This document shows positions 7,279 to 29,958 of a DNA stretch of 64,000 nt, piece by piece. Made by a program: the position numbers and the translations under genes. This DNA comes from Planctomycetota bacterium. Its GTDB lineage: Bacteria > Planctomycetota > UBA8108 > UBA1146. Each line of letters opens with the position of its first letter. Within the stretch, counting starts at the first letter, position 1. The DNA lies in contig JADHSM010000001.1 of assembly GCA_016776905.1 (NCBI GenBank), positions 45,743-109,742 of the forward strand, in the 5' to 3' direction. The notes beneath the pieces were generated by a model that saw nothing but the letters and a program-made list of their open reading frames with translations, had not been told where the DNA came from and did not search any database.

Positions 7279-7334
7279 TCATGGGGGCCTTCATGGGGGC
7301 CCAAGGAGGTTATCTGCGGAGGTTATCTGCGGAG
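7279..7334. repeat. Two adjacent short tandem duplications (12 bp x2: tcatgggggcct; 13 bp x2: ggttatctgcgga) in the intergenic/5' region
   Basis: Read directly from the sequence at 7279-7302 and 7308-7333. Confidence 0.85.
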
Positions 7335-8486: not shown

Positions 8487-8487
8487 G

Positions 8488-9705: not shown

Positions 9706-9706
9706 A

Positions 9707-10408: not shown

Positions 10409-11586
10409 GGTTTACTCTTCCCGACTTTTACGGCATCTCCAGCTTTGAGTCCTGGGTCTGGATCCATGACCACGGTCTCGCCACCGATCAATCCCGACCC
10501 CACTTCAATCAGAGAGTCATCGAAATCGTCACGGAGGGTGAGGGGTCTCTTCTCAAGCAGCCCATCCCGAATGATGAAGACAGCAGGTTCCGACCCTTGA
10601 ATCAGAGCTCTTTTTGAAAGTAGGACCATCGGTGGAGTAGGGTTACTTTCTTCTTCCGAGACAAAGACGACCCGGACTCCAAGTTCAGGAAGTAAGCGCT
10701 CGTCACGTTCCAAGAACTCAGCACGAAGTTCTACGGTCGCTTTTGCCCGACTGGCCGTGGGCCACACTTGACGAACCTGACCGCGATATCCTTCCTCGGG
10801 ATAGGCGTCGAGATATATCAGTAGGGGCGCTCCCACTCTTGCTGCTTCGAGGGCTGTCTGTGACAACTCTATTTGGACTTCCAAGGTGTCGAAATCGACA
10901 AGCGTCGCGACTGAGCCACGGGCGTTTGTTCCACCGCCACTGGCCACAACGACTTCTCCGACCTCTGCATTTTTTTGAACGACCACACCGGAGAATGGGG
11001 CATAGACAGTGGATTTATCGAGTCGAACCATGACCTCCATCAGTGAGGCCTCTAAAGATTGAACTCTTGCCGCCGCACCTTCGAATGAGGCTTCAGCACT
11101 CTCTAAAGCACTCGCTGACACGTCTTCAGTCTTGGCGAGCTTTTGTTGTCGCTCTAATGCGAGGCGAGTTTGTTTCTCGATGGCTTTTGCAGATTTGATT
11201 TCAGCCTGCAGTCTCTTTTGCCCTGCTTCCAGTTCTCGAGAATCGAGTCGTGCCACGACGTCTCCTTCGGAGACTCGAGATCCTTCTTCGACATTGAGCT
11301 CGACCAGTCGCCCTGGAATGTCTGTCGACAATGCCGCACGTCTTCGTGGGACGATGTAGCCATTGGCCGCAGTGCCTGTTCGTGCTTTTGCACCTCCGCG
11401 TCGCTGGACTCGTACGCTTTGCACGACAGTGTCATCGGAGGTTTGGAGTTGGGGGATTTCTTTCCAGGCGATGTAACTGCCTAGAATGATGAATAGAATC
11501 AGCGGCCATTTCGAAGAGCTTACTTTTGGAGTTCTATCGATCTTTAGGCGCGAAAGGTCAGGCTTCTTGTCTGGAACTTCTGACAA
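10405..11586 (-). CDS. HlyD-family periplasmic adaptor (membrane fusion protein)
   Basis: N-terminal TM anchor, a long coiled coil (LEAGQKRLQAEIKSAKAIEKQTRLALERQQ) and a beta-barrel C-terminus. Its stop overlaps the ATPase start. Confidence 0.8.
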   Translation of the reverse strand: MSEVPDKKPDLSRLKIDRTPKVSSSKWPLILFIILGSYIAWKEIPQLQTSDDTVVQSVRVQRRGGAKARTGTAANGYIVPRRRAALSTDIPGRLVELNVEEGSRVSEGDVVARLDSRELEAGQKRLQAEIKSAKAIEKQTRLALERQQKLAKTEDVSASALESAEASFEGAAARVQSLEASLMEVMVRLDKSTVYAPFSGVVVQKNAEVGEVVVASGGGTNARGSVATLVDFDTLEVQIELSQTALEAARVGAPLLIYLDAYPEEGYRGQVRQVWPTASRAKATVELRAEFLERDERLLPELGVRVVFVSEEESNPTPPMVLLSKRALIQGSEPAVFIIRDGLLEKRPLTLRDDFDDSLIEVGSGLIGGETVVMDPDPGLKAGDAVKVGKSKP

Positions 11587-12846: not shown

Positions 12847-14142
12847 TTAACGTGTCAGGCAGGAGGTTCGAAGAATCAATCCCTGACGTTGGCGTGGAAT
12901 TCCGGGAGAATCGGGATTTTTTTTCTGTTGTAGAGCGAGAGCACTGCCCCGAAGTAACAGACCATGACCATGTTGTTCACGAACGCGATCAACCTGAGGT
13001 AATAATTTTTGCCAGTTTGACTGTTGTCGTTTTTGGAAGTGGGATTCTTCGACTCCGATCGCTGCTGGTGGTCCGTCTTCTAAGACCGTAGATGTGTCAT
13101 CGAAAAGAGTTCCTTGCTCTGCGGAGGAGACGGGTTGGATCTTATCGAGGATCAGACCAATGAACCGAATGGCGGTTCTTCTTTTTTGTAGCGTTCGCCT
13201 CAATCGAAGAACAATCCTGATCAGATCAGGGTCGAGTTGGCTGGGGAATTTCAAAGATTCTCGTCGTCGATCGCGAATATGGTCACTGTAGGCGATTTGT
13301 ACCGAGACTCCGCCTGCCATTAATCCACGCTTTCGAAGATCAGAAGCGGCTCTCTCGGTGAGATATTCCAGCATGGCATCCAGAGTTCGTGGGCAAGAAA
13401 CATCCTCATCAAATGAAGTTCCTCGCTGAAGAGTTCGGGGGATTTCTTTGCCACCGATACTGCGATGATCTTCTCCTCGGCAGCGTTGATAAAGTGTTTC
13501 TCCATTCCTTCCGAGAAGGCCTTTCAAAGCTGGGGCTGAAAGTTGTCTCAATTGGGATATGGTCTCGATGCCTAGGCGACCGAGCTTTTCAGTGGTACGA
13601 GGACCGACTCCCGGAAGATCTCCGACCGTCATCGATAGAAGCAGATCTTCTTCATTCTCGGGACGGATGAGTCCTATACCGTTCGGCTTGTGGTCTCGAC
13701 CGATGAGTCTTGCGAACATACGATTTCTTCCCAATCCAACGGTGACGGTCAGCCCTGTGGATTCAGTGACTTCCCGACAGAGGCGTTCTGCTTCGTGGAC
13801 AGGGTTCGGAAATATTCGTCGGGTTCCCGAGAGGTCGCAGTAGGCTTCATCGAGATGTTCTTCGACACGGGGAGATAGCGTTTCACAGATGTCAAAAAGG
13901 CGCCGTGCATAGGCTCGATAGATGGTTTCGCGTCCACGAACGATGATGAGATTTGGGCAACGACGTAGCGCTTTCCCGAGCGGCATTCCTGCACGAAGTC
14001 CGTGTTCCCGAGCTTCATAGGAGCACGAGGCGATGACGCCGCTACCCACGGCAACGGGTTTACCGCTCAGTCGGGGATTTCGAATCTGTTCGACGGAAGC
14101 AAAAAAGGCGTCGATGTCGACGTGTAAGATGAGGGAATCCAT
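12847..14142 (-). CDS. dinB: Y-family DNA polymerase IV (DinB) with a C-terminal extension
   Basis: MDSLILHVDIDAFFASVEQ, LDEAYCDL and SMTVGDLPGVGPRTTEKLGRLGIETI are present. A clamp-binding-like QGTLF is followed by about 90 low-complexity residues. Confidence 0.85.
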   Translation of the reverse strand: MDSLILHVDIDAFFASVEQIRNPRLSGKPVAVGSGVIASCSYEAREHGLRAGMPLGKALRRCPNLIIVRGRETIYRAYARRLFDICETLSPRVEEHLDEAYCDLSGTRRIFPNPVHEAERLCREVTESTGLTVTVGLGRNRMFARLIGRDHKPNGIGLIRPENEEDLLLSMTVGDLPGVGPRTTEKLGRLGIETISQLRQLSAPALKGLLGRNGETLYQRCRGEDHRSIGGKEIPRTLQRGTSFDEDVSCPRTLDAMLEYLTERAASDLRKRGLMAGGVSVQIAYSDHIRDRRRESLKFPSQLDPDLIRIVLRLRRTLQKRRTAIRFIGLILDKIQPVSSAEQGTLFDDTSTVLEDGPPAAIGVEESHFQKRQQSNWQKLLPQVDRVREQHGHGLLLRGSALALQQKKNPDSPGIPRQRQGLILRTSCLTR

Positions 14143-14309: not shown

Positions 14310-15131
14310 GTGGACGTGGAAGTTCTGTGCAGGGAGGGGGTCGACGAAAAGGGGATAGAAACCCTGATTCTCGATCGGCCCGAAACGATGAATAGCCTGA
14401 ATGGCACCATGGTTTCTGAGTTGGCCATCGTTCTGAGGGAAATCTCTGAAGATTCGGCGGTGCGTGTATTACGAATCAAGGGGCAAGGCCGCGGCTTCAT
14501 GGCCGGGGGCGACCTCCGCTGGTTCGCCGGAATGTTCGAAGCCGAACCGGATCCCCAGCGTCGCCAAGAAGTGGTGCTTGAGGAGATACGTAAGGTTCAT
14601 GAGAGTATTCAACTGATCGACGCCATGGAATTCCCTGTTGTTGCGCAGGTTCATGGCGCTTGCGCCGGTTTTGGCCTGAGTTTGGCGACCGCTTGCGACC
14701 TGGTGATGTGTGCCAGTGATTGCAAAGTAACGTTGGCTTACAGCGGAATCGGTACGAGCCCCGATGGAGGATCGACATTTCAATTGCTCCGTCGTGTCGG
14801 GCGTCAGAGAGCGATGCAATTGGCTTTGCTCAATGAAAGAATCAACGGAGAAACTGCCGTCGATTGGGGATTGTTCTCGCGTGCTGTTCCCACTGAAGAG
14901 TTAGAAGCGGCGACGAGACAGTGGTGTGAGCAACTAGCGGATGGTCCGGCGAAAGCTTTGGCGAGAACACGGAGACTCTTACGGTCACCCCAGTATGATT
15001 TGACAGATGCTCTCGAGGCGGAAGCCCGATCCTTTAGTGAATGCGCAGGAGGTCACGAATTCCCGGAAGGTGTTCGTGCGTTCCTCGAAAAAAGAAGACC
15101 CGATTACAGATCTTCGATGGGAGAAAATTGA
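14310..15131 (+). CDS. Enoyl-CoA hydratase/isomerase (crotonase) family protein
   Basis: ILDRPETMNSLNGTMV...GQGRGFMAGGDL...GACAGFGLSLATACD. A GTG at 14310 is preceded by gggaagaggg; the ORF-track start at 14151 reads through the dinB operator region. Confidence 0.7.
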   Translation: MDVEVLCREGVDEKGIETLILDRPETMNSLNGTMVSELAIVLREISEDSAVRVLRIKGQGRGFMAGGDLRWFAGMFEAEPDPQRRQEVVLEEIRKVHESIQLIDAMEFPVVAQVHGACAGFGLSLATACDLVMCASDCKVTLAYSGIGTSPDGGSTFQLLRRVGRQRAMQLALLNERINGETAVDWGLFSRAVPTEELEAATRQWCEQLADGPAKALARTRRLLRSPQYDLTDALEAEARSFSECAGGHEFPEGVRAFLEKRRPDYRSSMGEN

Positions 15132-15995
15132 ATGAGTGAAGCCAATCAACCTCAACTTGCGGGCAAAGTGGTCTTTATCTCCGGTGGCAGCCGAGGGATC
15201 GGTAAGTCCATCGCCTTAAGAGCTGCCAAGGATGGCGCACGGGTCGTCATCGCGGCAAAGACGGTGGATCCTCATCCTCAACTTCCGGGCACGATTCATG
15301 AGACAGCCGAAGAGGTTCGATCTGCCGGTGGTGAAGCGCTCGCCGTAAAGATGGATATCCGAGACGACGATCAGGTGGACGCTGCTGTTCAGCAGGCTGT
15401 GGCCGAGTTCGGAAGAATCGATGTTCTGGTCAATAATGCGAGTGCGATCAATCTGACCCCTGTCTCCGCAACTCCCATGAAGCGTGTGGATCTGATGTTC
15501 GACGTGAATGTGAGGGGAACCTACACGTTGACTCGGGCGGCACTTCCAGCGATGACCTCGCCAGATGGAAATGGGGGACATGTTGTGAATCTGTCTCCAC
15601 CTCTCTCCATGAAACCGGTTTGGTTTGCTCGTCATACGGCTTATACGATTTCAAAATACGGTATGAGTCTGTGTGTCCTGGGAATGAGTGAAGAATTTCG
15701 TTCTGTAGGAATCGCGGTCAACGGTTTGTGGCCCAAAACAGTGATTGATACGGAAGCTCTTCGAATGATTCCAGGGCTGGATCGAAGAGCGACCCGAAAG
15801 CCAGAGATCATGGCAGATGCACTGCATGCTTTGGTCAGTCAGGACCCGAAGACTTGTACAGGTGAGTTCTTCATCGATGAGGAAATATTGGCACGAGTGG
15901 GGATCACTGATCTTTCTGGGTACGATACCGATCCCAACGTTCCACCGATGCCCGATCTTTTTGTCGACACTCCGGACTCGCCTTTTACAGCGTGA
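15132..15995 (+). CDS. SDR family oxidoreductase (HSDL2-like)
   Basis: GKVVFISGGSRGIGKSIA, NNAS and the YTISKYG catalytic motif. The start overlaps the upstream stop (TGAATG). Confidence 0.85.
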   Translation: MSEANQPQLAGKVVFISGGSRGIGKSIALRAAKDGARVVIAAKTVDPHPQLPGTIHETAEEVRSAGGEALAVKMDIRDDDQVDAAVQQAVAEFGRIDVLVNNASAINLTPVSATPMKRVDLMFDVNVRGTYTLTRAALPAMTSPDGNGGHVVNLSPPLSMKPVWFARHTAYTISKYGMSLCVLGMSEEFRSVGIAVNGLWPKTVIDTEALRMIPGLDRRATRKPEIMADALHALVSQDPKTCTGEFFIDEEILARVGITDLSGYDTDPNVPPMPDLFVDTPDSPFTA

Positions 15996-15997
15996 GT

Positions 15998-16468
15998 TCA
16001 AGGTTGCTGAGAGAACTCTTTCAGAGCGGCTCGTACTCCGTCGGCCAGCGGGATTTTTTTTCCGCTGGCGTATTCGACCTCGACGATTCGAGATGATCCG
16101 AGAGCGACGATGCGTTGGTGTGTCAATGAGTCGATACGGTGTTCGAGAGTGTAGCGATCTTCCCCGATATCACCGACTCGTATGAAGGAGACCAATTCCT
16201 CTGGGAAGACCACAGGAGCTCTGAAGATACATTCTACCTTCGCGAGAATCGGACCTGAAAAACTCTCTGGCCCGAGGGACCCGCAACCCATCCTCTGGAA
16301 AGCCTCAAATCGAGTCTCCTCGAACCAGCCTATAAAACGTGTGTTATTGACGTGACCGAGGGCGTCCATATCTCCCCAAGTGACCCTGAGGGGGATCTTT
16401 ATGGGCCAGTAATCTTCACTTGAATCCATTGTTTGGGCATCCTCTCCAAAAAAGTAAGTCTTTCGCAT
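15998..16468 (-). CDS. Hotdog-fold acyl-CoA thioesterase (4HBT/YbgC-like)
   Basis: WGDMDALGHVNNTRFIGWFEETRFEAF is the thioesterase catalytic Asp/His neighbourhood. Confidence 0.6.
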   Translation of the reverse strand: MRKTYFFGEDAQTMDSSEDYWPIKIPLRVTWGDMDALGHVNNTRFIGWFEETRFEAFQRMGCGSLGPESFSGPILAKVECIFRAPVVFPEELVSFIRVGDIGEDRYTLEHRIDSLTHQRIVALGSSRIVEVEYASGKKIPLADGVRAALKEFSQQP

Positions 16469-16924
16469 CGCACACGGGACATGCGTTGCTGTCCAGTGAT
16501 AGCCGGATTCTGCGACCTTGTGAGGTCTGCCGGAGGAAATGTTAATGTTATCTTCGAATCTGGGGAAGGTGTCCCCTTGTCTAAACCCCCTTTAATCCCG
16601 TATCTTCCCCTGATCGTGAGGGGGAGAGAGCATCAGGATGCGTCGCCCCGGAAGTTCCTGCGGGTGGTGTCCAATTTTCCTCTGTCAGATGTTCCATCTG
16701 ATCTTCGGAAATGATCGGGGTTTTTCCTCGGTAAAACATTCCCCCAAGGAAGACGATGGCTCGTCAGTCATCACTTTTTCGAGTGCTGTGTTCTTCGGAA
16801 TAAATCCGAGGCAAGACGAGAGTTTCGTTCGTATGAGATTCTTCATGCGAATCACAATTAGACTTCTGGACCTGCTGATAGTTTTGGCAGAATCTGATTT
16901 GGATAGACTAAGGAGGTACGCCAT

Positions 16925-18733
16925 ATGCGAGGACCCCGATTCCCGCATCCGTCATTGAGTAGAATCACCTATCAATTGGCATTGCTCATACTCGTTACCG
17001 TATTACCAGGTAGCGCACAGGCGATAGATTTTGATCTGATGAATGGACGAGTGACCGGACAGTTTGATACCACAGCGACGATGGGTTTCTCATGGAGAGT
17101 CTCTGATAGAGATCAATCCATCATTGGAACTACAAATGGCGGAACCGCCTATTCGCTCAATGGTGATGACGGAAACCTGAACTACGACAACGGCGACTTC
17201 TTCTCCAAGAACTTCAAGATTCTTCATGAGATCTCCGTTGATTACGAAGAGTACGAGTTTTTCGTTCGCGGATTTTACTTCAGGGATTTCGCTATCTCAG
17301 AGGGGAAAGTCTTGCAAGAGGGGCGTCAGCCTCTGACCGGAAGCTCCGAACGGTTTGCGGGACGCAATGCCGTTCTTCTGGACGCTTGGGTGCGTCGAGA
17401 TTTTGACCTAGGAGATGAGCCCGTATTGCTGACCTTGGGATCGCAGGTGATCAACTGGGGTGAGAGTACCTTCATTCAAAATGGTCTGAATACCGTCAAC
17501 CCAGTGGATGTCTCGAAGCTCAGAGCCGCAGGCTCGGAAATCAAGGAAGCCCTCGTTCCTATTCCGGCCTTGAAGTTCGATTACCAATTGAACGACGTGG
17601 TTTCTCTTCAAGGCTTCTACCAGTTGGGCTGGAGAAAAACCCGTCTTGAGCCTTACGGCACCTTCTTTAGCACCAGTGATATCGCATCACCTGGAGGCAA
17701 TGTTGTTCTTCTCGGTTTCGGAGTGGATCCCGGTGTCATCGATACACCGCCTGGACCTGCCACACCGGGATACAACGCTCCCGTAGGTGTTGGGGTGACA
17801 AGATCCGGTGACCGTGAAGCGAGTGATAGTGGCCAGTATGGACTGTCAGCGCGCTGGGACAGTGATCTCTTCGGGGGGACTGAAGTTGGTTTTTACTACA
17901 CACAGTTGCACAGTCGTCTGCCGTTGATCAGTTCCGTGACCGGAACTCCAGCCGGAGTGGCTGCGGGAGACTACGGAGGTTCTGCGGAATTCTTCCTCGA
18001 GTTCCCCGAAGATATTTCGACTTTGGGAGTCAGCTTCAACTCGGACCTCGGTATGACAGGGTGGGCGATTCAGGGTGAAACTTCTCTGCACCTCGACCAA
18101 CCGTTGCAGGTCGATGACGTGGAAATCCTCTTGGCTTCACTTTCGCCTCTCAACGCTGTATTCGGACAGAATCAGTTAGGGACCTTTGATTACGGAGATA
18201 AGGTTACGGGATATGTGCGCAAGGATGTTGCCCAAGCACAGTTCTCCCTGAGCCGATTGTTCGTGGGTCTCTTTGGAGCTGACCAAGTGGCCCTAGTGGG
18301 TGAATTTGGAGCGACGTTCGTCAATGAGTTTGAGGACCAAGAAGATTTTCGATACGAAGCCGTCGGTACTTACACTTCTGGAAATCCGATCTTTACTTCA
18401 TTGGGGATTCAGCCCGGTACCGAATCTATCGATGCTTTCCCGGATCGATTGTCGATGGGATATCGTCTGCTCTCCAGAGGAACCTACTACAACTTCTTTG
18501 GACCTTTGCCTCTTGTTCCGCAGGTGGCTTACTACCATGACTTCAAAGGTACATCACCGGTTCCAGTAGCGAACTTTATCGAGGGTAGGAAGACCGTCAG
18601 TCTCTCCGTCGGTACGGGAGCTCTAGGTCTTTGGGATGTGCGTCTTGCGTACTCCAATAGTTTCGGTGGGGGACGTTACAACCTTCTGACCGACCGCGAT
18701 TTCATGTCACTCACAGCGAGTTATTCCTTCTAG
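16925..18733 (+). CDS. DUF1302-family outer-membrane beta-barrel protein
   Basis: 602 aa with a signal peptide (ALLILVTVLPGSAQA), alternating beta-strand periodicity and a C-terminal aromatic (F). AAGGAGGT lies 9 nt upstream. It is followed by DUF1329, BNR and RND genes in the order known from proteobacteria. Confidence 0.6.
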   Translation: MRGPRFPHPSLSRITYQLALLILVTVLPGSAQAIDFDLMNGRVTGQFDTTATMGFSWRVSDRDQSIIGTTNGGTAYSLNGDDGNLNYDNGDFFSKNFKILHEISVDYEEYEFFVRGFYFRDFAISEGKVLQEGRQPLTGSSERFAGRNAVLLDAWVRRDFDLGDEPVLLTLGSQVINWGESTFIQNGLNTVNPVDVSKLRAAGSEIKEALVPIPALKFDYQLNDVVSLQGFYQLGWRKTRLEPYGTFFSTSDIASPGGNVVLLGFGVDPGVIDTPPGPATPGYNAPVGVGVTRSGDREASDSGQYGLSARWDSDLFGGTEVGFYYTQLHSRLPLISSVTGTPAGVAAGDYGGSAEFFLEFPEDISTLGVSFNSDLGMTGWAIQGETSLHLDQPLQVDDVEILLASLSPLNAVFGQNQLGTFDYGDKVTGYVRKDVAQAQFSLSRLFVGLFGADQVALVGEFGATFVNEFEDQEDFRYEAVGTYTSGNPIFTSLGIQPGTESIDAFPDRLSMGYRLLSRGTYYNFFGPLPLVPQVAYYHDFKGTSPVPVANFIEGRKTVSLSVGTGALGLWDVRLAYSNSFGGGRYNLLTDRDFMSLTASYSF

Positions 18734-18746
18734 GAGGAGAGTATAT

Positions 18747-20108
18747 ATGTTGAATAAAACTTTGATCACGACTCTGCTACTGCTTTCGGCATTGTTCATG
18801 TTAGCAGCAGGAGAAGCCCCCATTCAAAATGGGGCTGAGCGTTTAGGTGAAGATTTAACGGCGATGGGTGCCATCCAGGGCGCGAACAAAGATGGATCCA
18901 TCCCTGCATGGACCGGTGGATTGACCCAGCCTGTCGCGGGTTGGAAATCTGGAGATCACTACGCCGATCCCTTCCCTGGCGACAAGGTTCTTTACACGGT
19001 CACCGCAGAGAATGCAGACAAGTACAAGGACATATTGTCCCCAGGGCAATTGGCAATGCTTCAGCGTTATCCCGACACTTGGAAGCTGAACGTCTACCAG
19101 ACGAGACGCACTGCGGCATACCCTGAAGATATCTATGCGGCTGCCAAAGAGAACGCGACGACCGCTTCTCTCACGGATGAAGGAAACGGCGTAAAAGATT
19201 GTCGCCGAACTTCTCCATTCCCAGTCCCTACCGAAGGTCTTCACGGAATATGGAACCATCTTTTGCGTTATCGTGGAAAGTCCACACGCAGAACAGTGGG
19301 GCAGGTCGCTCCGATCGCGGATGGCCGTCACACGATGGTGACCATCGAAGAGGAAGTTCTTTACCGCTATAATGCTGAGGGAATGACTTCGGAATCCGCA
19401 AAAAACATTTTGGCAAAGTTCTATCAGGGAGTCACCGGGCCTCCGCGTCTGGCTGGAACCAAGTTGCATGTCCATGAAACTCTTGATCAGACCTCAGACC
19501 CGAGAAAAGCATGGGTTTACAACAAGGGGTTGAGAAGAGTGCGTCGTGCTCCTCAGGTTTCCTTTGATAACCCAGGGACAGCCAGTGACGGTCAGAGAAC
19601 CAATGACCAGTTCGATATGTTTAATGGAAGCCCCGAGCGTTACGACTGGAAGTTGGTCGGACGCAGAGAGCTACTGGTGCCATACAATTGCTATAAGGCT
19701 CACAATGCAGAGGTCGATCCGAAGAACCTGATCGAGGCCGGTCACTTGAATCCGGATATGCTTCGCTACGAGAAGCACCGTGTTTGGGAAGTCGACGCTG
19801 TCGTTAAAGATGGGACCAGTCACCTCTACAAGAGAAGAACCTTCTTCTTCGATGAGGATTCATGGCAGGCACTTGTGATTGATCAGTATGATAACTCCGA
19901 CAATATTTGGAGAGTCTCAGAGGCATATCCGATCATTTATTATGATCTGCCGGCTCTCTACGACACTCTTCTCTCCCACTATGACCTTGATAATGGTCGT
20001 TACCTTACCATTGGTTTCAATGCCAAGGGGAATGTGGAGAAGTGGGTTTCAGACTTGAAGGACAGTGATTTCTCAGCGGCTTCTCTTTCGAGGCGCGGTA
20101 AGAGGTAG
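18747..20108 (+). CDS. DUF1329-family (LolA-like fold) periplasmic protein
   Basis: 453 aa with a signal peptide. Its size and position in the DUF1302/DUF1329/BNR/RND module support the call. Confidence 0.55.
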   Translation: MLNKTLITTLLLLSALFMLAAGEAPIQNGAERLGEDLTAMGAIQGANKDGSIPAWTGGLTQPVAGWKSGDHYADPFPGDKVLYTVTAENADKYKDILSPGQLAMLQRYPDTWKLNVYQTRRTAAYPEDIYAAAKENATTASLTDEGNGVKDCRRTSPFPVPTEGLHGIWNHLLRYRGKSTRRTVGQVAPIADGRHTMVTIEEEVLYRYNAEGMTSESAKNILAKFYQGVTGPPRLAGTKLHVHETLDQTSDPRKAWVYNKGLRRVRRAPQVSFDNPGTASDGQRTNDQFDMFNGSPERYDWKLVGRRELLVPYNCYKAHNAEVDPKNLIEAGHLNPDMLRYEKHRVWEVDAVVKDGTSHLYKRRTFFFDEDSWQALVIDQYDNSDNIWRVSEAYPIIYYDLPALYDTLLSHYDLDNGRYLTIGFNAKGNVEKWVSDLKDSDFSAASLSRRGKR

Positions 20109-20131
20109 ATCCTTTAGGGCAATTGTGAGTA

Positions 20132-20170
20132 GGGATCGGGCGAGAGGATTTCATCCTCTCGCCCGATCCC
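20132..20170. other. Perfect 18-bp-stem hairpin between the DUF1329 and BNR genes
   Basis: gggatcgggcgagaggat-ttc-atcctctcgcccgatccc. Confidence 0.8.
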
Positions 20171-20312
20171 ATGTCCACTTCCTGATGTTTTGTTATCGAT
20201 GCACTCCTGAATAAAGAAGCCCGCGTTAAAGAAGCACCGCCAAACTTGTGCTCGGGGCAATTTTCTAGGAGCTGTAAGGCGAACGAGATCTTGATCCAAG
20301 AAGAGGTGAACC

Positions 20313-21413
20313 TTGTCTGCAGAAAGATATTCGCCGGGACCCATTCGATCCGTGAAGGGTCGAGGAATAGTAATATTCTTCATTTTCGGGATCCTCCTGT
20401 CGGTGGCAGTCATTCGCTGGTTTGGAGAAACTTCAGACCGGATCGGTCACGAAGTTCTTCTCGCAGAAGCCCAGTCTCCTCAGAAGGACAATCCAAAGAC
20501 TTCTCTTCCGGATTCAGCATTTCTTCTTTCCCCCGATAAGTTTGACACCGCTCTATATCTATCTGGAGCCGTCAGTGGTCAGAGAGTCATTCTTGTCGGT
20601 GATCGCGGAGTCATTTTGGTTTCCTCTGATGGGGGTGAGCAGTTTCAGCAAGTGCCTGTTCCCTCACGACGAATGATTTGCGACGTCACCTTGAGTTCCG
20701 ATGGGACTGCCTTTGCTGTAGGTCATGAAGGATTGGTTTTACGATCCAGAGACTTTGGTGATACATGGGAAAAAGTTCATCACGATCCTGAAGCCGATCA
20801 GGCACTTTTCTCGGTGGTTGATTTGGGGAATGAACACGTCGTGGCTGCGGGGGCCTTTGGTCTGGTGATGGTCACTCGGGACGGCGGAAAGAGCTGGAGT
20901 AAAGGTGAGGTGAACGAAGAAGGACCGCATCTCTATTCGTTGAAGTTGACGGGTGACGAAATTGTGGCAGCAGGAGAATTCGGCTCTGTTCTCAGCAGTA
21001 AAGACGGGGGAGAAACCTGGTCGGCGCTGGAAAGCCCTTATGAAGGAACACTCTTCGATATTCTTGTTACAGAAGATCGTTGGACCTTGATGGGCTTGAG
21101 GGGCAACCTTTGGGAAGGGCGACCGGGTGAATGGACTCAGGTCGATCAGCCTTCTGAAGCCACTCTCTTCGGGGGCTGTTTTCTGGGAGACGGCACGACT
21201 GTGGTCGTTGGAGCAGAGGGTGTGGTCCTGATTCGGTCAGCACAAAGCGGAGAATGGTCCCAGATGAAGCCGAAGAAGGATCGAAGGAGATTACTCTCGA
21301 AACCACTTCTCCTGCCGGCAGGGAGAGTTCTCGGACTCGGTGAAAAAGGATTCGATTCTTTAGAGACGACTCCTGATACCGATACTTCGACAGAGCAGGG
21401 AGGCCCTCGATGA
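20313..21413 (+). CDS. BNR/Asp-box beta-propeller protein (Ycf48-like), membrane-anchored
   Basis: Four Asp-boxes (SSDGGEQF, SRDFGDTW, TRDGGKSW, SKDGGETW) and an N-terminal TM anchor. The start is uncertain: TTG at 20313 or GTG at 20349. Confidence 0.6.
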   Translation: MSAERYSPGPIRSVKGRGIVIFFIFGILLSVAVIRWFGETSDRIGHEVLLAEAQSPQKDNPKTSLPDSAFLLSPDKFDTALYLSGAVSGQRVILVGDRGVILVSSDGGEQFQQVPVPSRRMICDVTLSSDGTAFAVGHEGLVLRSRDFGDTWEKVHHDPEADQALFSVVDLGNEHVVAAGAFGLVMVTRDGGKSWSKGEVNEEGPHLYSLKLTGDEIVAAGEFGSVLSSKDGGETWSALESPYEGTLFDILVTEDRWTLMGLRGNLWEGRPGEWTQVDQPSEATLFGGCFLGDGTTVVVGAEGVVLIRSAQSGEWSQMKPKKDRRRLLSKPLLLPAGRVLGLGEKGFDSLETTPDTDTSTEQGGPR

Positions 21414-23746
21414 GATCTTTGCTCGAATCATGGTTGTTTGGTCGTAGCCGACAAGTCCTCATACTCCTCGCCTTGCTCACAGTCTTCCTGACCTTTCAGG
21501 CGACTCGTCTCGCCATCGATGCCGGCTTTGAAAAACAACTCCCCAAAGATCATCCTTGGATGGATGTTTTCAGGGAATATCAATCTCAATTCGGTGGAGC
21601 CAACAGATTACTGATCGCTGTCAGGGACAGGGATGGAAATCTCTTTAATCCGGACTCTCTTGAAAAGTTGAATAAAGTCACCCGAGCCCTTGGATCTGTG
21701 CCAGGGGTGGATCGCTCTTCTATCACCTCGATCTTCACCCCTAACGTTCGGTTTGTAAGAATCGTTGAGGGAGGCTTTGAGGGCGGAAATGTGGTGCCCG
21801 CCGATTGGAAGCCTACTGAGGAGATGGCTGAACTGGTCAGAGAAAATGCTCTCCAATCAGGTCAGGTTGGTCGACTCGTTGCCAATGACTTTTCTGCTGC
21901 CATGGTCACTGCGACTTTGGTGGAGATGGATCCAAATACAAAAGAAGCTCCTGACCCTATTGAGGTCGGGCGTCTTCTCGAAGAAATGATTCGTGATCCC
22001 TTTGTCGATGACAAAGTGGACATTCATATGATCGGGTTTTCGAAAGCGGTACACGATATCGCTTCTGGAGCCGCTCAAGTAGCAGCCTTCTTCCTCATAG
22101 CCCTTGCTGTGACGGCCCTCTTCGTACGAGGGTTTACCCGTTCATGGAAGTTGACACTCTTCCCTTTATTGTCCTCTTTGTTGGCCGTTGTCTGGACAAT
22201 GGGTGGGGTAACGACACTCGGGTATGGTCTCGATCCTATGTCGATCCTTGTTCCATTCCTGATCTTCGCCATCGCCATGTCGCATGGCGTTCAAATGGTA
22301 GGGGCATTCTCCTCGGCTTTAAGTCAGGGAAGTCTTCCAGCGGAGGCGTCAAAGAAAGCATTTGGCCAGTTATTTGTTCCTGGAGTCGTTGCGCTTCTCA
22401 GTGATTCCGTAGGGTTTTTGACCCTTCTGTTTATTCCGATTCAGGTGATTCAAGACTTAGCAGTGATGTCTGCTATAGGCGTGGTGTTGATCTTTGGAAC
22501 CGGTTTCATGCTACTGCCGATTTTGTTGGCAAAGATGGCTCAAGACGAAAAACTTGTTCAACGACTCTCGCAACCGATGCCCGTTCGTGAAGGACTTTGG
22601 GCACGTATAAACCTTGCGACGAAACCCAGAGTTGCATTTTTACTGGTGATGCTGGCTCTGACCGGAGGAATGCTCGCCTATGATTCTTCGACACGTGTCA
22701 TCATCGGAGACGCCGATAAGGGCTTGCCAGAGCTTCGTCCAGGATCTCGTTACAATGTAGACTCTGTCACCATTGCGGACTCATTCTCAATAGGTGTGGA
22801 TTTGATGACGGTCATCGTCGAATCTCATCCGGATGGAAGTATCGATCATGACGTGATGGATTTGATCGATGAGTTCCAATGGAGAATCTCTCACGTCGAA
22901 GGTGTTCGTTCGACGATCTCCCTCCCGCAGGCTGCGCGTATTCTCGCGGCTGCATGGAGTGAAGGTTCTCCTGTATGGAGAGAACTGCCGAGAAACCAAG
23001 ATGTTCTGATGCAGTCCTTGTCGAGTATCGAAACCTCGACAGGATTACTGAACTCGGACGCCAGTGTGCTTCCCGTTATGATTTTCACTGAAGACCATAA
23101 AGCCGAGACGATCAAGAGAGTGACCGCTGCTGTCGAAGATTTTGATCGGGAGTTTGGGATTGAAGGAACCGCTAGGTTCTTGTTGGCAACTGGCAATGTG
23201 GGTGTCATGGCAGCGACGAATGAAGTCGTTTCAGCCGCCCAAATGCGCATGTTGTTGACCATCTATGGTGTCGTCATCGTGCTAGGACTCTTCGCCTTTA
23301 GGTCTATTCGGGCAACTCTTTGTGTGGTGTTACCGCTCTGTCTCGTGAGTGTCTTGTGTTACTCATTGATGGTCGCATTGGGAATCGGGCTGAAGGTTTC
23401 AACCTTGCCCGTGACGGCTCTGGGAGTGGGAATCGGAGTTGACTACGGAATATACCTGACGCATCAACTGTTGATTGCAAGAAGGTCCGGTCACTCATTA
23501 GGAGAGAGTTATCTCCAAGCCCTCAGGCGCTCAGGGAATGCCGTTCTCGTCACCGGTTTAACATTGGCTATCGGTGTTGCAACTTGGATCTTCTCTGACC
23601 TTAAGCTTCAGGCAGACATGGGCGTATTGCTGAGTTTCATGTTTGCCGGGAACATGATCGGCGCGCTGTTGCTTCTCCCCGCGCTTCATCGGTTCTTGCC
23701 GGGAGGAAAACCTGAATCAGATATCGCTTCAGAAACGGATCAATAA
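21410..23746 (+). CDS. RND-superfamily exporter, MMPL/HpnN-like (12 TM, two periplasmic loops)
   Basis: 778 aa with two repeated 6-TM halves carrying MMPL-like motifs. Its start overlaps the BNR gene stop. Confidence 0.75.
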   Translation: MRSLLESWLFGRSRQVLILLALLTVFLTFQATRLAIDAGFEKQLPKDHPWMDVFREYQSQFGGANRLLIAVRDRDGNLFNPDSLEKLNKVTRALGSVPGVDRSSITSIFTPNVRFVRIVEGGFEGGNVVPADWKPTEEMAELVRENALQSGQVGRLVANDFSAAMVTATLVEMDPNTKEAPDPIEVGRLLEEMIRDPFVDDKVDIHMIGFSKAVHDIASGAAQVAAFFLIALAVTALFVRGFTRSWKLTLFPLLSSLLAVVWTMGGVTTLGYGLDPMSILVPFLIFAIAMSHGVQMVGAFSSALSQGSLPAEASKKAFGQLFVPGVVALLSDSVGFLTLLFIPIQVIQDLAVMSAIGVVLIFGTGFMLLPILLAKMAQDEKLVQRLSQPMPVREGLWARINLATKPRVAFLLVMLALTGGMLAYDSSTRVIIGDADKGLPELRPGSRYNVDSVTIADSFSIGVDLMTVIVESHPDGSIDHDVMDLIDEFQWRISHVEGVRSTISLPQAARILAAAWSEGSPVWRELPRNQDVLMQSLSSIETSTGLLNSDASVLPVMIFTEDHKAETIKRVTAAVEDFDREFGIEGTARFLLATGNVGVMAATNEVVSAAQMRMLLTIYGVVIVLGLFAFRSIRATLCVVLPLCLVSVLCYSLMVALGIGLKVSTLPVTALGVGIGVDYGIYLTHQLLIARRSGHSLGESYLQALRRSGNAVLVTGLTLAIGVATWIFSDLKLQADMGVLLSFMFAGNMIGALLLLPALHRFLPGGKPESDIASETDQ

Positions 23747-23760
23747 TCCCGAAGTTCTGA

Positions 23761-26262
23761 TTAGAGTTTTTTACGTCCACTCGAATTCAAGAGTCCATTC
23801 GTGACTTCTTGGGAACTCGCGGGGGCAACTCCTGCCGGGAAGTGATCTACAGTGATGGCTTCTTGGCGCGCTTGTTCAGCGGCGTGTAATCGAATAGCAC
23901 CTTCTGCGTCGATCACTCCAGCTTCGACTCCCTTTTCGATCAGAGAGGGGAGTGGGCCCTTCGGAAGTATTCCTTTTCGGACCGCGTCCTTCAGAGCTTT
24001 TTTATCCGGTTGTGCTTTTACAACTTTTTGAAGCGCATCTTCGAGCATCCAGAGTCCTGGTGAAGAGTTCGGACGGGTGAGGACATTATTCGTTAATGAG
24101 ACCCAGAGATCTTTACCGTCGAGGAGCTGTTCTCCGATGCGGTCAGCGAGTTTGTCGGACGGCCCGTTGCTTCGACGTCCTCCAGGGACACCGAGAAGGC
24201 GGAGTCCCCATGCTGCTGGGCGAAGGGGCAGATTCGCAAGGAATCCTCCCATTGCTTCTTCCGTATTCTGAACACAGGTTTGCAACAAGTAATCGACAAG
24301 GTCTTTGTCTCTTGCCAAACGACCCTCGTCTTGGAATTTCTTGAGTGTGACTGATCCGACAACCATCCAAGTCAGAGCATCTGCCAAACGCCCGGTCAGG
24401 TGTTCTTTTCGTTTGAGAGATCCTCCAAGAGTCCCCATCGCTGCGTCTGTGCATAAAGCAAAGGCACTGGAGAGAGCTGTGAGACGTTGATGACTTCTTC
24501 CGATAGAACCGGTGAAGTGTTTACTGGCGAATCTTGCTCCTGTGATGCGATGGAGCAATGTTCTGACTCCATTAGATTTCACGAATCCGACATGACCCCA
24601 GAAGGCTTTATCAAAATCGCGAAGATTTCCGGATTCAACTGCGGCCAATTCCTGCTGAACGAAGGGGTGACAGCGCACCGCTCCCTGACCAAAGATGATC
24701 AGCGTTCGGGTCAGAATATTGGCGCCCTCTACCGTAATCCCCACGGGAACGGTGGAGTATGCATTGGCCATTTCATTGCGAGGACCGCGACATATCGCAT
24801 TTCCTGCGACGACGTCCATGCAGTCATTGACGACGTCACGCAGGCGTTCGGTCGCGTAGGCTTTTGCCACTGCACTGAGAACGGCAGGTTTTTCGCCGCT
24901 ATCGACAGCAAGAGTGGTCGATAGCCTCAAGGCATCCAGTGAATAGACATGAGCGGCAGAGCGAACTAAGGGCTCTTGAACGCCCTCAAACTTCCCGATC
25001 GGCATGCCGAATTGTTCTCGAACAGAAGCGTGTGCTCCAGCCACTCGTAGGGACAACTGGGCTCCTCCGGTCGAACTCGAAGGAAGCATGATGCCTCGAC
25101 CCGCAGAGAGGCACTGCATCAGCATGGTCCAGCCTTTGCCACAGCCTTCGCGTCCACCGATGACGGTGTCGAGTGAGGCAAATACGTCCCGTCCGCGAGT
25201 CGGGCCATTGAGGAAGGGGACGCCGAGGGGGTCGTGTCTCTCGCCAGAATCGACGCCGGGTGTATCAGAAGGGATGAGAGCACAGGTGATACCGAGGTCT
25301 TCCTTACCACCCAATAGGCGTTCAGGATCATAGAGCCTGAAAGCCACACCGATCAGTGACGCTCTAGGAGCAAGAGTGATGTATCTCTTTTCCCAGTGAA
25401 TCCGCATTCCCAGTACTTTCTGGCCGTTCACTTCTTCCTCGACAATGACACCATGGGAAGACATCGATCCAGCAGCATCTGATCCCGCACCGGGTTCGGT
25501 GAGAGCAAAACAAGGAATCTCTTGGCCTTTTGCCAATTTGGGGAGAAGAGTTTTCTTTTGTTGGTCGGTTCCATAATGAAGGAGGAGTTCGCCAGGGCCC
25601 AACGAGTTTGGAACCATGATGGTAATCGCGAGAGCATTACTGACGGTGGCCGCCTTGGAAATGATGGTTGATATGGCGGTCGCGGAGAATCCAAGCCCAC
25701 CATATTCCTGAGGAATGATCAGGCCAAAAAATCCATTGTCGCAAAGGAACTGAAAAGTTTCTTCGGATATGGCGCCCTCTTGGCGGTCACGCCAACAGTC
25801 GACCATAGAAGCGAGTTGGGCGAGGGGACCGTCGATGAACTCTTGCTCACGAGGTGATAACTCGGAGGTCCCTTGTCCAAGATAGGTATGCCAGTCAGGG
25901 CTACCACTGAAGAGTTCGCCATCCCAACCGACAGTTCCACCTTCGAGGGCTTCCTTTTCAGTCTCACTGATGGGAGGAAGGACACTTTTTACTGCGATCA
26001 TCGCCGGCTTGCTCAAGATGACAGCACGCAAGGGTGGTACGAGCGCGAACAAGGTGAAGAGGGCAAAGGAGACGAGGTAAACTCCCTGAGCATCCCAAGT
26101 GAAGACCTCGGGGATCCCTACGAGTTTGGGATCAAATGCAATGATGGAGCCGATCAGTAGCAGGCCCCATCGAACCTTGCCATAGGCAATAATGAACAGG
26201 CCTGGTAAGAAAGCGATCAACCAGGGAACTAACTTTTCAGCGAAGGTGCTCAGTTCATTCAT
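23761..26262 (-). CDS. fadE: Large acyl-CoA dehydrogenase, FadE type
   Basis: 833 aa. It has an N-terminal membrane segment, then ACAD N, middle and C domains (GGLGFSATAISTIISK...) and a long C-terminal extension, as in E. coli FadE. Confidence 0.8.
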   Translation of the reverse strand: MNELSTFAEKLVPWLIAFLPGLFIIAYGKVRWGLLLIGSIIAFDPKLVGIPEVFTWDAQGVYLVSFALFTLFALVPPLRAVILSKPAMIAVKSVLPPISETEKEALEGGTVGWDGELFSGSPDWHTYLGQGTSELSPREQEFIDGPLAQLASMVDCWRDRQEGAISEETFQFLCDNGFFGLIIPQEYGGLGFSATAISTIISKAATVSNALAITIMVPNSLGPGELLLHYGTDQQKKTLLPKLAKGQEIPCFALTEPGAGSDAAGSMSSHGVIVEEEVNGQKVLGMRIHWEKRYITLAPRASLIGVAFRLYDPERLLGGKEDLGITCALIPSDTPGVDSGERHDPLGVPFLNGPTRGRDVFASLDTVIGGREGCGKGWTMLMQCLSAGRGIMLPSSSTGGAQLSLRVAGAHASVREQFGMPIGKFEGVQEPLVRSAAHVYSLDALRLSTTLAVDSGEKPAVLSAVAKAYATERLRDVVNDCMDVVAGNAICRGPRNEMANAYSTVPVGITVEGANILTRTLIIFGQGAVRCHPFVQQELAAVESGNLRDFDKAFWGHVGFVKSNGVRTLLHRITGARFASKHFTGSIGRSHQRLTALSSAFALCTDAAMGTLGGSLKRKEHLTGRLADALTWMVVGSVTLKKFQDEGRLARDKDLVDYLLQTCVQNTEEAMGGFLANLPLRPAAWGLRLLGVPGGRRSNGPSDKLADRIGEQLLDGKDLWVSLTNNVLTRPNSSPGLWMLEDALQKVVKAQPDKKALKDAVRKGILPKGPLPSLIEKGVEAGVIDAEGAIRLHAAEQARQEAITVDHFPAGVAPASSQEVTNGLLNSSGRKKL

Positions 26263-26282: not shown

Positions 26283-26945
26283 TCAGGGGACTGTAATCAT
26301 CTCCCCATTCAGTCTCTCATCATCTGACAAAAGATCCAAACCTAGTAATGACCCTAGCATATCCAGAATTTCGAGGGGATTGACGCCGAGATCGACATTG
26401 AGCAGTACCAGAGTGCCAGAGATGGCGATCCATGAGTCCCTACTTCTTCGCTGTAGAGGTGTCAATTGTTGCAAAGATGGAGCCTGACTCAGCAGCGGAT
26501 TGGGGATTTGTTCGTGGAGGCCGAACAAGGAGCAACTCTCTCCCTCAACATAATGGTTCCCCATCAATATGAGAGCTCCGAGTAAGCCGCGCTTTCGATT
26601 TTCGAATTCTTCCTCAGGAGTCGACTCTGGCCAGGGTGATTCATAGAAAGGAAATCCAAGTAGCAGAGTTGGAAAAGCCGCTGTTCGAAGCATTCCTGCG
26701 GGTTGTCCCGGACGAGGGTCCCAACCCACAGTACTCATTCGAGTGATCGACCCGTCTCCAAATCCTACGGCGGGCTGGATCAGTGAGGTCACCTCTGCTT
26801 CTGCGTAGAGACCCACGCCCACTCCCACTTTGGCGCGAAAGCAGTCGGTGACATCTCTTTTGAATGCGCTGGAGCAGCCGCAGAGCAGGGGAGTGATCCC
26901 TAGCAAGATCGCCCATTTTAGGTGCGATTGTTTCCCCTGAGACAT
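26283..26945 (-). CDS. Lipoprotein, unknown function
   Basis: Lipobox LLCGCSS after the signal peptide. Confidence 0.4.
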   Translation of the reverse strand: MSQGKQSHLKWAILLGITPLLCGCSSAFKRDVTDCFRAKVGVGVGLYAEAEVTSLIQPAVGFGDGSITRMSTVGWDPRPGQPAGMLRTAAFPTLLLGFPFYESPWPESTPEEEFENRKRGLLGALILMGNHYVEGESCSLFGLHEQIPNPLLSQAPSLQQLTPLQRRSRDSWIAISGTLVLLNVDLGVNPLEILDMLGSLLGLDLLSDDERLNGEMITVP

Positions 26946-28969: not shown

Positions 28970-29233
28970 CTATTGAAGAAAGAGTCGTTCAATGCGCCAG
29001 CCGGCTTGGGCTTCTTGATAGGCGAGTTCGAGGATGTCTCCAGTATCAACCTCAACCGTAAATCCGTGCAGGGGCGGTTGAAGAGATCTGTCGATCCAGT
29101 GGGAATGGTTTTTTTCCACCTTCAGGAGACGGCGATTCCATAAAATCGATAATATTTCGATACGGTTTGAATGAAATCGAACGATGACCTCTTCCAGAGG
29201 TTCGTCGATAATCTCCTCATGAACTTCGCTCAT
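28970..29233 (-). CDS. Small acidic hypothetical protein translationally coupled to lexA
   Basis: 87 aa. Its ATG overlaps the lexA stop (ATGA). The local GC is lower than its neighbours and I recognise no domain. Confidence 0.3.
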   Translation of the reverse strand: MSEVHEEIIDEPLEEVIVRFHSNRIEILSILWNRRLLKVEKNHSHWIDRSLQPPLHGFTVEVDTGDILELAYQEAQAGWRIERLFLQ

Positions 29234-29958
29234 CTGTTTTGATCAAATCGACGGACGAGTCCGACGAGTTTGCCGAAAACTTTGATGGATCCCATTTCAG
29301 AATTCAGTTCGAGGGGGGGGAAATCCGGATGAGCCGCTTCGAGAATGATGCGGGTTTCTTGACTGGCGTCGGTTTTTTTTCGCCAGCGCTTGAGAGTGCC
29401 TTCTCCTTCGATGGTGATGGCTGCAATCTCTCCATTCTCGACGGTCGGCTGGTTTCGAATGATGGCGAGGTCGCCATTGTGTATTCCCGCATCTTGCATG
29501 CTGTGCCCCTCAACAGTGAGTGCGACGACATGATCTTTTTGACCAAAAGCAGAAGGCGGCATATCGATCCACTCTTCTGGTTGTTGACCTGATTCCAGAC
29601 AACTTTCGATGGGGCGTCCGGCAGCGATTCTGCCGACGACGGGAATCGAGTCGGGACGTGGAGAATCTGCCTGATCTTCGATAACGGGAGACCAACTTCG
29701 GGAACCTCCTCCTGAGACTCGCGTGATCAGTCCCGCTTCTTCCAGCTTTTTGAGATGTCGATGAACAGAGGCCGGTGAAGAGAGACCCAGTTGTGTCGCT
29801 AACTCCCTGACGGTTGCCGGTCTATGACTGGAACCACGAATGAGATCGAGCATTCGTTGACGGGTGTTGTTTCCTCGCGGTGAGTCGAGGTCCGAGGTCT
29901 TGGAATCAGGAACCGCGGATTTGGATTTGAGTGACGACTTTTTTCGTGTGTTGGACAT
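29230..29958 (-). CDS. lexA: LexA repressor (S24 peptidase) with an extended basic N-terminus
   Basis: wHTH region VRELATQLGLSSPASVHRHLKKLEEAGLI, cleavage-site region VVGRIAAGRPI, and catalytic Ser in GHSM and Lys in LKRW. Confidence 0.85.
   Translation of the reverse strand: MSNTRKKSSLKSKSAVPDSKTSDLDSPRGNNTRQRMLDLIRGSSHRPATVRELATQLGLSSPASVHRHLKKLEEAGLITRVSGGGSRSWSPVIEDQADSPRPDSIPVVGRIAAGRPIESCLESGQQPEEWIDMPPSAFGQKDHVVALTVEGHSMQDAGIHNGDLAIIRNQPTVENGEIAAITIEGEGTLKRWRKKTDASQETRIILEAAHPDFPPLELNSEMGSIKVFGKLVGLVRRFDQNR

Follow-up and report, generated by a model that had tools for sequence, protein, structure and literature searches.

The 64-kb window analyzed here, from contig JADHSM010000001.1 of a Planctomycetota bacterium (assembly GCA_016776905.1), carries a four-gene cassette of the AmeABCD type at positions 16925-23746, that is, a known envelope system in a new host (all coordinates refer to the whole window). 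The cassette comprises, in this order and on one strand, genes for an outer membrane beta-barrel (DUF1302), a LolA-like periplasmic protein (DUF1329), a Ycf48-like BNR/Asp-box propeller, and an inner membrane transporter of the RND/MMPL type. On balance, and with moderate confidence, we favor the view that the four proteins pass neutral, very hydrophobic lipids through the envelope in the service of acyl catabolism, with inward movement as the favored direction. An initial annotation, made from the sequence alone, had placed these genes at the same coordinates and in the same order, between genes for an enoyl-CoA hydratase (ECH), a short-chain dehydrogenase/reductase (SDR) and a hotdog thioesterase on one side and a FadE-type acyl-CoA dehydrogenase on the other. 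The open reading frame (ORF) map, the Pfam and NCBIfam searches, and the predicted structures bore all of this out.

A known four-component cassette

Profile searches assigned the segment 16925-20108 to DUF1302 and DUF1329 and matched the BNR and MMPL families in the next two genes (Table 1); these ORF and Pfam matches lie far beyond chance level. The genes are tightly packed, as DUF1329 starts 13 bp past the DUF1302 stop and the stop of the BNR gene overlaps the start of the RND gene by 4 bp. The sole sizeable gap inside the module separates DUF1329 from the BNR gene and measures 204 to 294 bp according to the BNR start, for which GTG 20352 is likely, while TTG 20313 gives the longest ORF and gene callers choose 20352 or 20403. 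The Pseudomonas cluster splits into two loci at exactly this gap. Gene callers also put a small minus-strand ORF there, which is probably spurious.

The same four families occur in the same order in AmeABCD of the betaproteobacterium Castellaniella defragrans 65Phen (Puentes-Cala & Harder 2018, PMC6394551). The proteins of that system, AmeA (DUF1302), AmeB (DUF1329), AmeC (COG4447, Ycf48-like), and AmeD (HAE3 RND), have 605, 451, 316, and 787 amino acids (aa), compared with 602, 453, ~353, and 778 aa here. The likeness rests on families, order, and sizes, and both cassettes lie among genes for the catabolism of hydrophobic substrates. In contrast, the hosts are distant, and the neighbors are monoterpene genes in C. 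defragrans and acyl-CoA oxidation genes at the present locus. The four families are also those of Sama_1588-1591 in Shewanella amazonensis and of PP_0765/PP_0766 plus PP_2018/PP_2019 in Pseudomonas putida. Consequently, the description of the module as functionally uncharacterized had to be dropped, since it was preceded by the work on AmeABCD (PMC6394551) and by cofitness and phenotypes from random barcode transposon sequencing (10.1101/072470; 10.1101/2020.07.04.188060).

Export signals and folds agree with the assigned places of the first two proteins. The N terminus of the DUF1302 protein reads as a signal peptide (...GSAQA|ID) and its C terminus as ...SYSF, with a terminal Phe, and the DUF1329 protein has a signal peptide that lacks a lipobox cysteine. 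A sequence search of the PDB with either protein returned zero matches, so a fold search was needed. The AlphaFold2 model of DUF1302 (pLDDT 81.5) has 18 long strands, and its best Foldseek matches are AlgE and the Occ/OprD channels (E ~1e-10, TM 0.52-0.59), which accords with the ECLIPSE paper. The DUF1329 model (pLDDT 86.8) matches LolA3 of P. gingivalis (9tp6, E 7e-17, TMt 0.81), as well as the DUF1329 crystal structure 4z48, 3bk5, 3buu, LolA/LolB, and RseB. The propeller assignment of the third protein was made from sequence rather than from a fold model, through matches to Ycf48 structures in the PDB (8am5, 2e-15; 2xbg; range 2e-15 to 1e-11). The N terminus of this protein is a hydrophobic segment, an anchor or signal, that homologues of many lineages have as well. 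The protein diverges much faster than its partners, with 40-59% identity in the planctomycete clade versus 66-88% for the other three.

The fourth protein has 12 transmembrane-like segments in its hydropathy profile, as previously claimed, and two large periplasmic loops, one spanning residues 35-220 and the other 425-605. Its MMPL match scores 79.5 bits against a cutoff of 20.5, and a sterol-sensing domain is matched too. The best NCBIfam profile is that of HAE3 (TIGR00921, E 8.6e-47), at 159.6 bits and below its cutoff of 351.9, and the pump falls short of the cutoffs of the HpnN and MmpL families (TIGR03480, 57.9 of 751.85 bits; NF052374, 19.9 of 1100; TIGR00833, 84.4 of 874.7). It is likewise below the cutoff of the HAE1 family of AcrAB-TolC-type pumps (ACR_tran, 18.5 bits, cutoff 28), and the module contains neither an HlyD/MFP nor a TolC gene, the HlyD-family gene of the window being part of a separate MacAB-like set. 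The nearest PDB sequences are HpnN (5khn, E 3e-05), MmpL4 (4e-05), and MmpL5, followed by a weak match to NCR1 (8qeb, E 1e-3). Across 61 homologues, the polar intramembrane residues D275, S291-H292, Q295, D332, D678-Y679, and N748 are invariant, with S291-H292 in transmembrane segment 4 (TM4) and D678-Y679 in TM10, within the motif GVGIGVDYGIY. This pattern fits a titratable intramembrane network. The proton relay of MmpL3 contains an Asp-Tyr pair in TM10, like D678-Y679, and by analogy with MmpL3 and HpnN the residues of the pump may form such a relay. The 12-segment, two-loop architecture is that of the HAE3 and HAE2 lipid exporters HpnN and MmpL3/4/5, whereas TM4 carries Ser-His here and Asp-Tyr in the HpnN/MmpL-type exporters. 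Moreover, HpnN operates without dedicated outer membrane or periplasmic partners (PMC6394551), unlike the arrangement proposed for this module.

Table 1. Features of the 64-kb window, with the cassette and its upstream region first, the flanking genes next, and the remaining features last
Feature	Position	Strand	Basis or remark
DUF1302 outer membrane beta-barrel (AmeA-like), 602 aa	16925-18733	+	PF06980, E 1.2e-156, profile positions 5-541 of 541
DUF1329 periplasmic LolA-like carrier (AmeB-like), 453 aa	18747-20108	+	PF07044, E 1.3e-136, profile positions 1-367 of 368
Ycf48-like BNR/Asp-box propeller (AmeC-like)	20313-21413	+	PSII_BNR E 5.5e-16, plus BNR repeats
RND/MMPL HAE3-like inner membrane transporter (AmeD-like), 778 aa	21410-23746	+	MMPL E 3e-22
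Promoter-like block, conserved	16577-16608	+	TTGTCT 16577-16582, 18-nt spacer, TATCTT 16601-16606
Possible 5' leader	16609-16924		~310 nt
Small ORF, 76-89 aa, probably spurious (position given is that of the gap)	20109-20351	-	
Enoyl-CoA hydratase/isomerase family, 273 aa from 14310	14310-15131	+	ECH_1 E 5e-48
SDR oxidoreductase, PRK08278 subfamily	15132-15995	+	adh_short E 8e-40; NF006133 396 bits, cutoff 250
Hotdog acyl-CoA thioesterase (4HBT_2, YbgC/FadM-like)	15998-16468	-	4HBT_2 E 6.5e-20
FadE-type long acyl-CoA dehydrogenase, 833 aa	23761-26262	-	ACDH_C E 2.8e-79; NF007000 936 bits, cutoff 600
Putative lipoprotein U220, 220 aa, N terminus ...LLCGC	26283-26945	-	No Pfam or NCBIfam match
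ORF, 523 aa	5733-7304	-	No Pfam match (E <= 1e-3 or 1e-4)
MacAB-like set	7323-11586	-	HlyD-family adaptor (10405-11586), ABC ATPase, two FtsX/MacB_PCD permeases
DinB/IMS translesion polymerase	12847-14142	-	
LexA-like protein	29230-29958	-	Helix-turn-helix and S24 peptidase
GreA/GreB-domain ORF, 764 aa	32868-35162	-	GreA/GreB N- and C-terminal domains only at residues 606-756
Glucose/sorbosone dehydrogenase-like protein	39398-41500	+	Dockerin type I domain
FG-GAP repeat protein, 776 aa	42921-45251	-	
ORF, 644 aa	46549-48483	+	No Pfam match (E <= 1e-3 or 1e-4)
ORF, 429 aa	53584-54873	-	No Pfam match (E <= 1e-3 or 1e-4)

Recurrent linkage to lipid catabolism across phyla

The order of the four genes is kept in about 60 related loci of many phyla, of which about 44 are not planctomycete. 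Genes of lipid metabolism lie at most 6.7 kb away in 23 of these ~44 loci, a qualitative count given without a background rate. The following neighborhoods were verified with Pfam, and two of them (L038 and L057) form arrays on a single strand. In a Desulfuromonadales metagenome-assembled genome (MAG), the order is lipase (Lipase_bact_N), DUF1302, DUF1329, BNR, RND, AMP-binding acyl-CoA synthetase, FadB, and thiolase (locus L038). In a gammaproteobacterial MAG, it is FadE, FadB, thiolase, ECH, SDR, the four module genes, and AMP-binding (L057). Furthermore, a GDSL lipase lies directly upstream of the module and an ECH gene directly downstream in L089. L091 carries a 4HBT_2 thioesterase that abuts the RND gene, an ACAD-family dehydrogenase, FadB, thiolase, a MerR regulator, and AMP-binding, convergent with the pump. 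That the module lies beside lipase, acyl-CoA synthetase, and FadBA genes on the same strand time and again, in phyla that are not related, is difficult to explain by chance. The tie between the module and acyl oxidation, proposed initially from the present window alone, is thus backed by independent arrays.

The flanking families of the planctomycete locus themselves recur. Homologues of its ECH (39-46% identity) adjoin the module in the gammaproteobacterial MAGs L057, L060, L064, and L066, and homologues of its SDR (52-56% identity) do so in L033, L039, L057, L060, and L064; thus, the pair tends to travel with the cassette. FadE homologues were found within ~6 kb of the module in eight loci (L035, L040, L042, L046, L052, L055, L057, and L063). 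A more distant planctomycete lineage, whose DUF1302 is 57% identical, has the same core, and 32 bp beyond its RND gene, on the same strand, it adds a gene for an acyl-CoA synthetase of the AMP-binding family.

Copies in Pseudomonas, like the present one, commonly have acyl-CoA ligase or fatty acid genes as neighbors, and ligase genes near the cassette have been noted in pseudomonads (10.1101/2020.07.04.188060). In contrast, a LuxR-type regulator, which is lacking at this locus, usually goes with them (PMC13499233), and they often form several DUF1302/DUF1329 paralogue pairs. Pseudomonas profundi (L080, NZ_VTPZ01000001.1) illustrates this expansion of the outer membrane half, with three tandem DUF1302-DUF1329 pairs in 21 kb and no adjacent BNR or RND gene.

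Host and inheritance of the cassette

The labels of related MAGs support a cosmopolitan marine planctomycete lineage as the host. The exact DUF1329 protein was found in 83 blocks of a metagenome-assembly index, on contigs of up to 313 kb; the places shown for it are ENA, Logan, and NCBI records, including one explicitly marine metagenome. Relatives in the species-representative genome set that are 67-98% identical mostly bear Planctomycetota or Planctomycetia labels, including TMED53, UBA1146, NAT2, and MCMED-G47, while a few are labeled merely "bacterium" and one Bacillota. The citrate synthase of the same window agrees, since its named relatives at 70-85% identity are all "Planctomycetota bacterium"; the Planctomycetota-like background suspected beforehand therefore stands. 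The remainder of the window consists of ordinary core genes, such as those for FabI, NadE, citrate synthase, QueA, MoaA, IspH, TruD, and urocanase. Two discordant labels probably belong to mislabeled MAGs: L018 (QNYK01000023.1), fully collinear with the planctomycete loci yet labeled "Bacillota bacterium", and P0241, an 8.5-kb contig labeled "Proteobacteria bacterium" with a 99%-identical citrate synthase.

Relatives at 45-60% identity bear Bdellovibrionota, Rhodospirillaceae, Fibrobacteraceae, Krumholzibacteriota, Desulfuromonadales, Gammaproteobacteria, and Opitutaceae/Verrucomicrobia labels, protein searches add Cloacimonetes and Eisenbacteria, and the Pseudomonas copies of DUF1329 are only ~42-45% identical. 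Since the relatives bear about 10 different phylum-level labels, the initial view of a module known mainly from Pseudomonas, Marinobacter, and Alcanivorax was too narrow. Its presence in Planctomycetota, described as unusual, is only mildly so; it is, at the same time, new to the searchable literature, in which no paper joins DUF1329 with Planctomycetes.

Within the planctomycete clade, ~21 kb are collinear: FtsX-ABC-HlyD-nitrilase-DinB, ECH and SDR, the thioesterase (-), the module, FadE (-) and U220 (-), a HEAT-repeat protein, and the LexA-like gene (-). Since unrelated genes (DinB, nitrilase, and the LexA-like gene) are equally conserved, this synteny is uninformative on function. In an unrooted neighbor-joining tree of DUF1329 plus RND, labeled by MAG, the planctomycete copies form one clade next to a Bdellovibrionota MAG, and the GC content over the module (0.51) is the same as in its surroundings. 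Because the copies form one clade, the region is collinear, and the GC content is uniform, the cassette appears to be an old, vertically inherited part of the planctomycete lineage. Recent horizontal transfer was considered and is countered by the same three observations.

Cargo, direction of transport, and alternative explanations

The assembly of the four proteins, their cargo, their energy coupling, and their direction of movement are what we infer from these observations. In the lipid conduit that we favor, the 18-strand DUF1302 barrel would sit in the outer membrane, the soluble LolA-like DUF1329 protein would shield the hydrophobic cargo across the periplasm, the membrane-anchored Ycf48-like propeller would dock onto the pump, and the inner membrane HAE3-like RND pump would be driven by the proton motive force. 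AlphaFold-multimer has predicted DUF1302-DUF1329 and DUF1329-BNR-RND contacts for this family (PMC10866462; PMC13499233, interface predicted TM-score 0.84). Most likely, the cargo would be a hydrocarbon or a fatty ester, such as a wax ester or an acylglycerol, and not a free acid. Its acyl moieties would be activated to CoA esters and then oxidized by FadE and the neighboring ECH, SDR, and thioesterase enzymes. Movement would run inward, from barrel to carrier to RND pump to inner membrane, resembling the eukaryotic hand-off in which the soluble carrier NPC2 passes cargo to an RND-superfamily protein, NPC1/NCR1, which moves it on into the membrane where this protein resides. NPC2 and DUF1329 are not homologous, and the possible likeness is a functional analogy only.

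Three considerations favor the inward direction. First, the neighbors of the cassette are catabolic, whereas known RND and MMPL lipid exporters usually sit with biosynthetic genes. Second, mutant defects concern esters and hydrocarbons and not the corresponding polar derivatives. The ameABCD genes of C. defragrans are induced on alpha-phellandrene, and without them growth is poor on monoterpene hydrocarbons and normal on oxygenated monoterpenoids (PMC6394551). Likewise, Thompson et al. found that P. putida specifically requires PP_0765/0766/2018(/2019) when it is given Tween 20 or butyl stearate, and that the genes are dispensable on laurate and myristate (10.1101/2020.07.04.188060). Third, the defect of the P. 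putida mutants persists in pooled assays, in which secreted functions are shared; this cell autonomy argues against a secreted helper. Co-expression or cofitness together with a transport phenotype has been reported for Castellaniella, Shewanella, Kangiella, and Pseudomonas only.

Several observations weigh against this interpretation. The biochemically characterized bacterial relatives of the pump, HpnN and the MmpL proteins, are all exporters, as is the closest match of the barrel fold, AlgE. Deletion of ameABCD in C. defragrans slightly raised Nile Red accumulation, and the authors assigned the system to efflux and tolerance (PMC6394551), in contrast to the uptake that we favor for the family. 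Price et al. found the four genes to be cofit in Shewanella, Kangiella, and Pseudomonas, and read pleiotropic phenotypes in Shewanella and P. stutzeri as export of cell wall components (10.1101/072470). About 20 loci have no lipid genes nearby, and some of them, e.g., L090 and L092, have housekeeping neighbors only. At the planctomycete locus itself, FadE is convergent with the RND gene (their stop codons are 14 bp apart) and the thioesterase gene is divergent, so that the module is not co-transcribed with any flanking gene; profile scans of the 64-kb window found no acyl-CoA synthetase gene, and no regulatory motif shared by the module and the flanking genes was found. Any co-regulation of the module with these genes would be an assumption.

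It is possible, though we consider it less likely, that the cassette works in the opposite direction. The RND pump would then pull a hydrophobic molecule from the inner membrane and pass it through DUF1329 and DUF1302 for insertion into, or passage across, the outer membrane. The cargo would be a toxic membrane-partitioning substrate or an endogenous envelope lipid, and the beta-oxidation genes would be co-located merely through shared conditions. Besides the exporter relatives (HpnN and MmpL4/5 for the pump, AlgE for the barrel), the pleiotropic phenotypes, and the ~20 loci without catabolic neighbors, such efflux or export would account for the Nile Red result and the limonene sensitivity of the ameABCD mutant, the latter relieved by acetate (PMC6394551), and for the finding of DUF1302 and DUF1329 in nanopods and outer membrane vesicles of Delftia. 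It sits less well with the lipases, acyl-CoA synthetase, FadB, thiolase, and FadE beside the cassette here and in many phyla. Furthermore, the substrates on which the P. putida mutants specifically fail, fatty esters, have no marked toxicity, and the matching free acids do support growth. If the cassette exported a surfactant that is secreted freely, all cells of a pooled fitness assay would share it and the loss would not be seen.

A general role in outer membrane biogenesis or maintenance, with Lol- or Mla-like traffic of lipids or lipoproteins and a position that is an accident of inherited synteny, is improbable. The 21 kb of collinearity, which takes in the DinB, nitrilase, MacAB-like, and LexA-like genes, would suit it, as would the opposite-strand or convergent flanking genes, the LolA/LolB/RseB-type fold of DUF1329, and the lack of a detected shared operator. 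However, ECH plus SDR, FadE, thioesterase, acyl-CoA synthetase, and lipases recur beside the module in unrelated phyla and in differing arrangements, and the module has a patchy distribution and proved dispensable wherever its essentiality was tested. DUF1329 also lacks a lipobox and stays below the LolA_like cutoff. Least probable by far is the proposal, first made for PP_0765/PP_0766, that DUF1302 and DUF1329 are fatty-ester hydrolases; it would explain the ester-specific fitness defects of P. putida, where the esterase was not identified (10.1101/2020.07.04.188060), but we reject it on fold grounds, since neither of the two models, a porin-like barrel of 18 strands and a LolA-like carrier, resembles a hydrolase, no hydrolase family was matched, separate lipase genes (GDSL and Lipase_bact_N) adjoin the module in several lineages, and the original group later recast the pair as transport components (PMC10866462).

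Comparison with known lipid transport systems

The C-terminal ~240-290 residues of the DUF1329 model share the open beta-barrel LolA fold with LolA/LolB, LolA3, 4z48, and RseB. The similarity to the Lol pathway is one of fold only, as the LolA-like profile PF17131 gave 24.2 bits against a cutoff of 30. In addition, DUF1329 is about twice the size of LolA owing to an extra N-terminal region, and its genomic partner is an RND pump, whereas that of LolA is LolCDE.

The role proposed here is similar to that of FadL and of AupA-AupB (PMC5989066), i.e., entry of hydrophobic substrates in marine bacteria, and the proteins are unrelated. No FadL Pfam match was obtained, and FadL is missing from the top 50 fold matches of DUF1302. 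FadL is a 14-strand barrel with a hatch domain, in contrast to the 18 long strands of the DUF1302 model. AupA and AupB of Marinobacter were rejected as homologues, AupA being FadL-like and AupB an unrelated inner membrane protein. PahS/PahP of Cycloclasticus were rejected as well, because PahS is a 22-strand TonB-dependent receptor.

Upstream region and other features of the window

Upstream conservation was read from aligned sequences of 13 planctomycete loci, covering the region between the thioesterase and DUF1302 genes. An invariant AATCCCGTATCTTCC at 16594-16608 encloses the TATCTT box of the promoter-like block, and a conserved AAGGAGGT ribosome-binding site precedes the DUF1302 start codon. 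This pattern of conservation suggests that the block may act as the promoter of the module. Its 15-mer has a single occurrence without mismatches in the window; the other matches have 3 mismatches each and all lie inside genes. An operator shared by the module and the ECH-SDR or U220-FadE genes was considered and rejected, since AATCCCGTATCTTCC is absent from their upstream regions. The stretch between the block and the DUF1302 start is poorly conserved, ranges from 190 to 310 nt across lineages, and may be a long 5' leader; it holds no known riboswitch, because neither the Rfam nor the tRNA scan of the window gave a match. A generic scan for sigma-70 promoters and terminators was uninformative, with fewer promoter-like sites than in shuffled sequences.

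Regarding the flanking genes, the ECH start is 14310 or 14316 according to gene callers on identical contigs, and the longest ORF begins at 14151; none of the NCBIfam equivalogs attains its cutoff for this protein. The SDR gene follows directly 3' of it. U220 and FadE form a pair on one strand, with U220 first and FadE immediately after it. U220 is 49-56% identical in all planctomycete loci, and a similarly placed 234-aa protein without family occurs in the distant lineage L087.

Farther away, all planctomycete relatives have the MacAB-like set collinear with the module, and the two are not associated outside the phylum. The DinB and LexA-like genes bracket the region, keep their positions across the clade, and may be of the SOS type. 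The GreA/GreB-domain ORF has an N-terminal extension of ~600 residues without a family match. Both the dockerin-bearing dehydrogenase-like protein and the FG-GAP repeat protein look secreted or surface exposed.

Biological implications

The locus reveals no new kind of system; what is new to the searchable literature is its occurrence in Planctomycetota. To our knowledge, DUF1302 has no experimental structure, and we know of no substrate for the cassette. It is nonetheless among the more widespread envelope systems, and its direction of transport is disputed. What the present locus adds is stable inheritance of the cassette in a cosmopolitan lineage of marine planctomycetes, along with the apparent presence in planctomycetes of both a porin-like barrel of 18 strands and a LolA-like carrier. 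The comparison across phyla, in turn, shows that genes for lipases, acyl-CoA synthetase, and beta-oxidation accompany the cassette far outside Pseudomonas as well, and this linkage sharpens the hypothesis of neutral lipid uptake.

A more specific and tentative proposal, which we hold to be conceivable rather than probable, is that the cassette is a proton-driven importer, the bacterial counterpart of the NPC2-to-NPC1 relay, which would move wax esters, acylglycerols, and algal hydrocarbons from the outer to the inner membrane. If so, it would be the first bacterial nutrient uptake system of the RND superfamily, and it would let free-living marine planctomycetes, as well as bacteria of many further Gram-negative phyla, exploit particulate or algal lipids as food. 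The cassette would then represent a widespread and overlooked route of marine lipid turnover.

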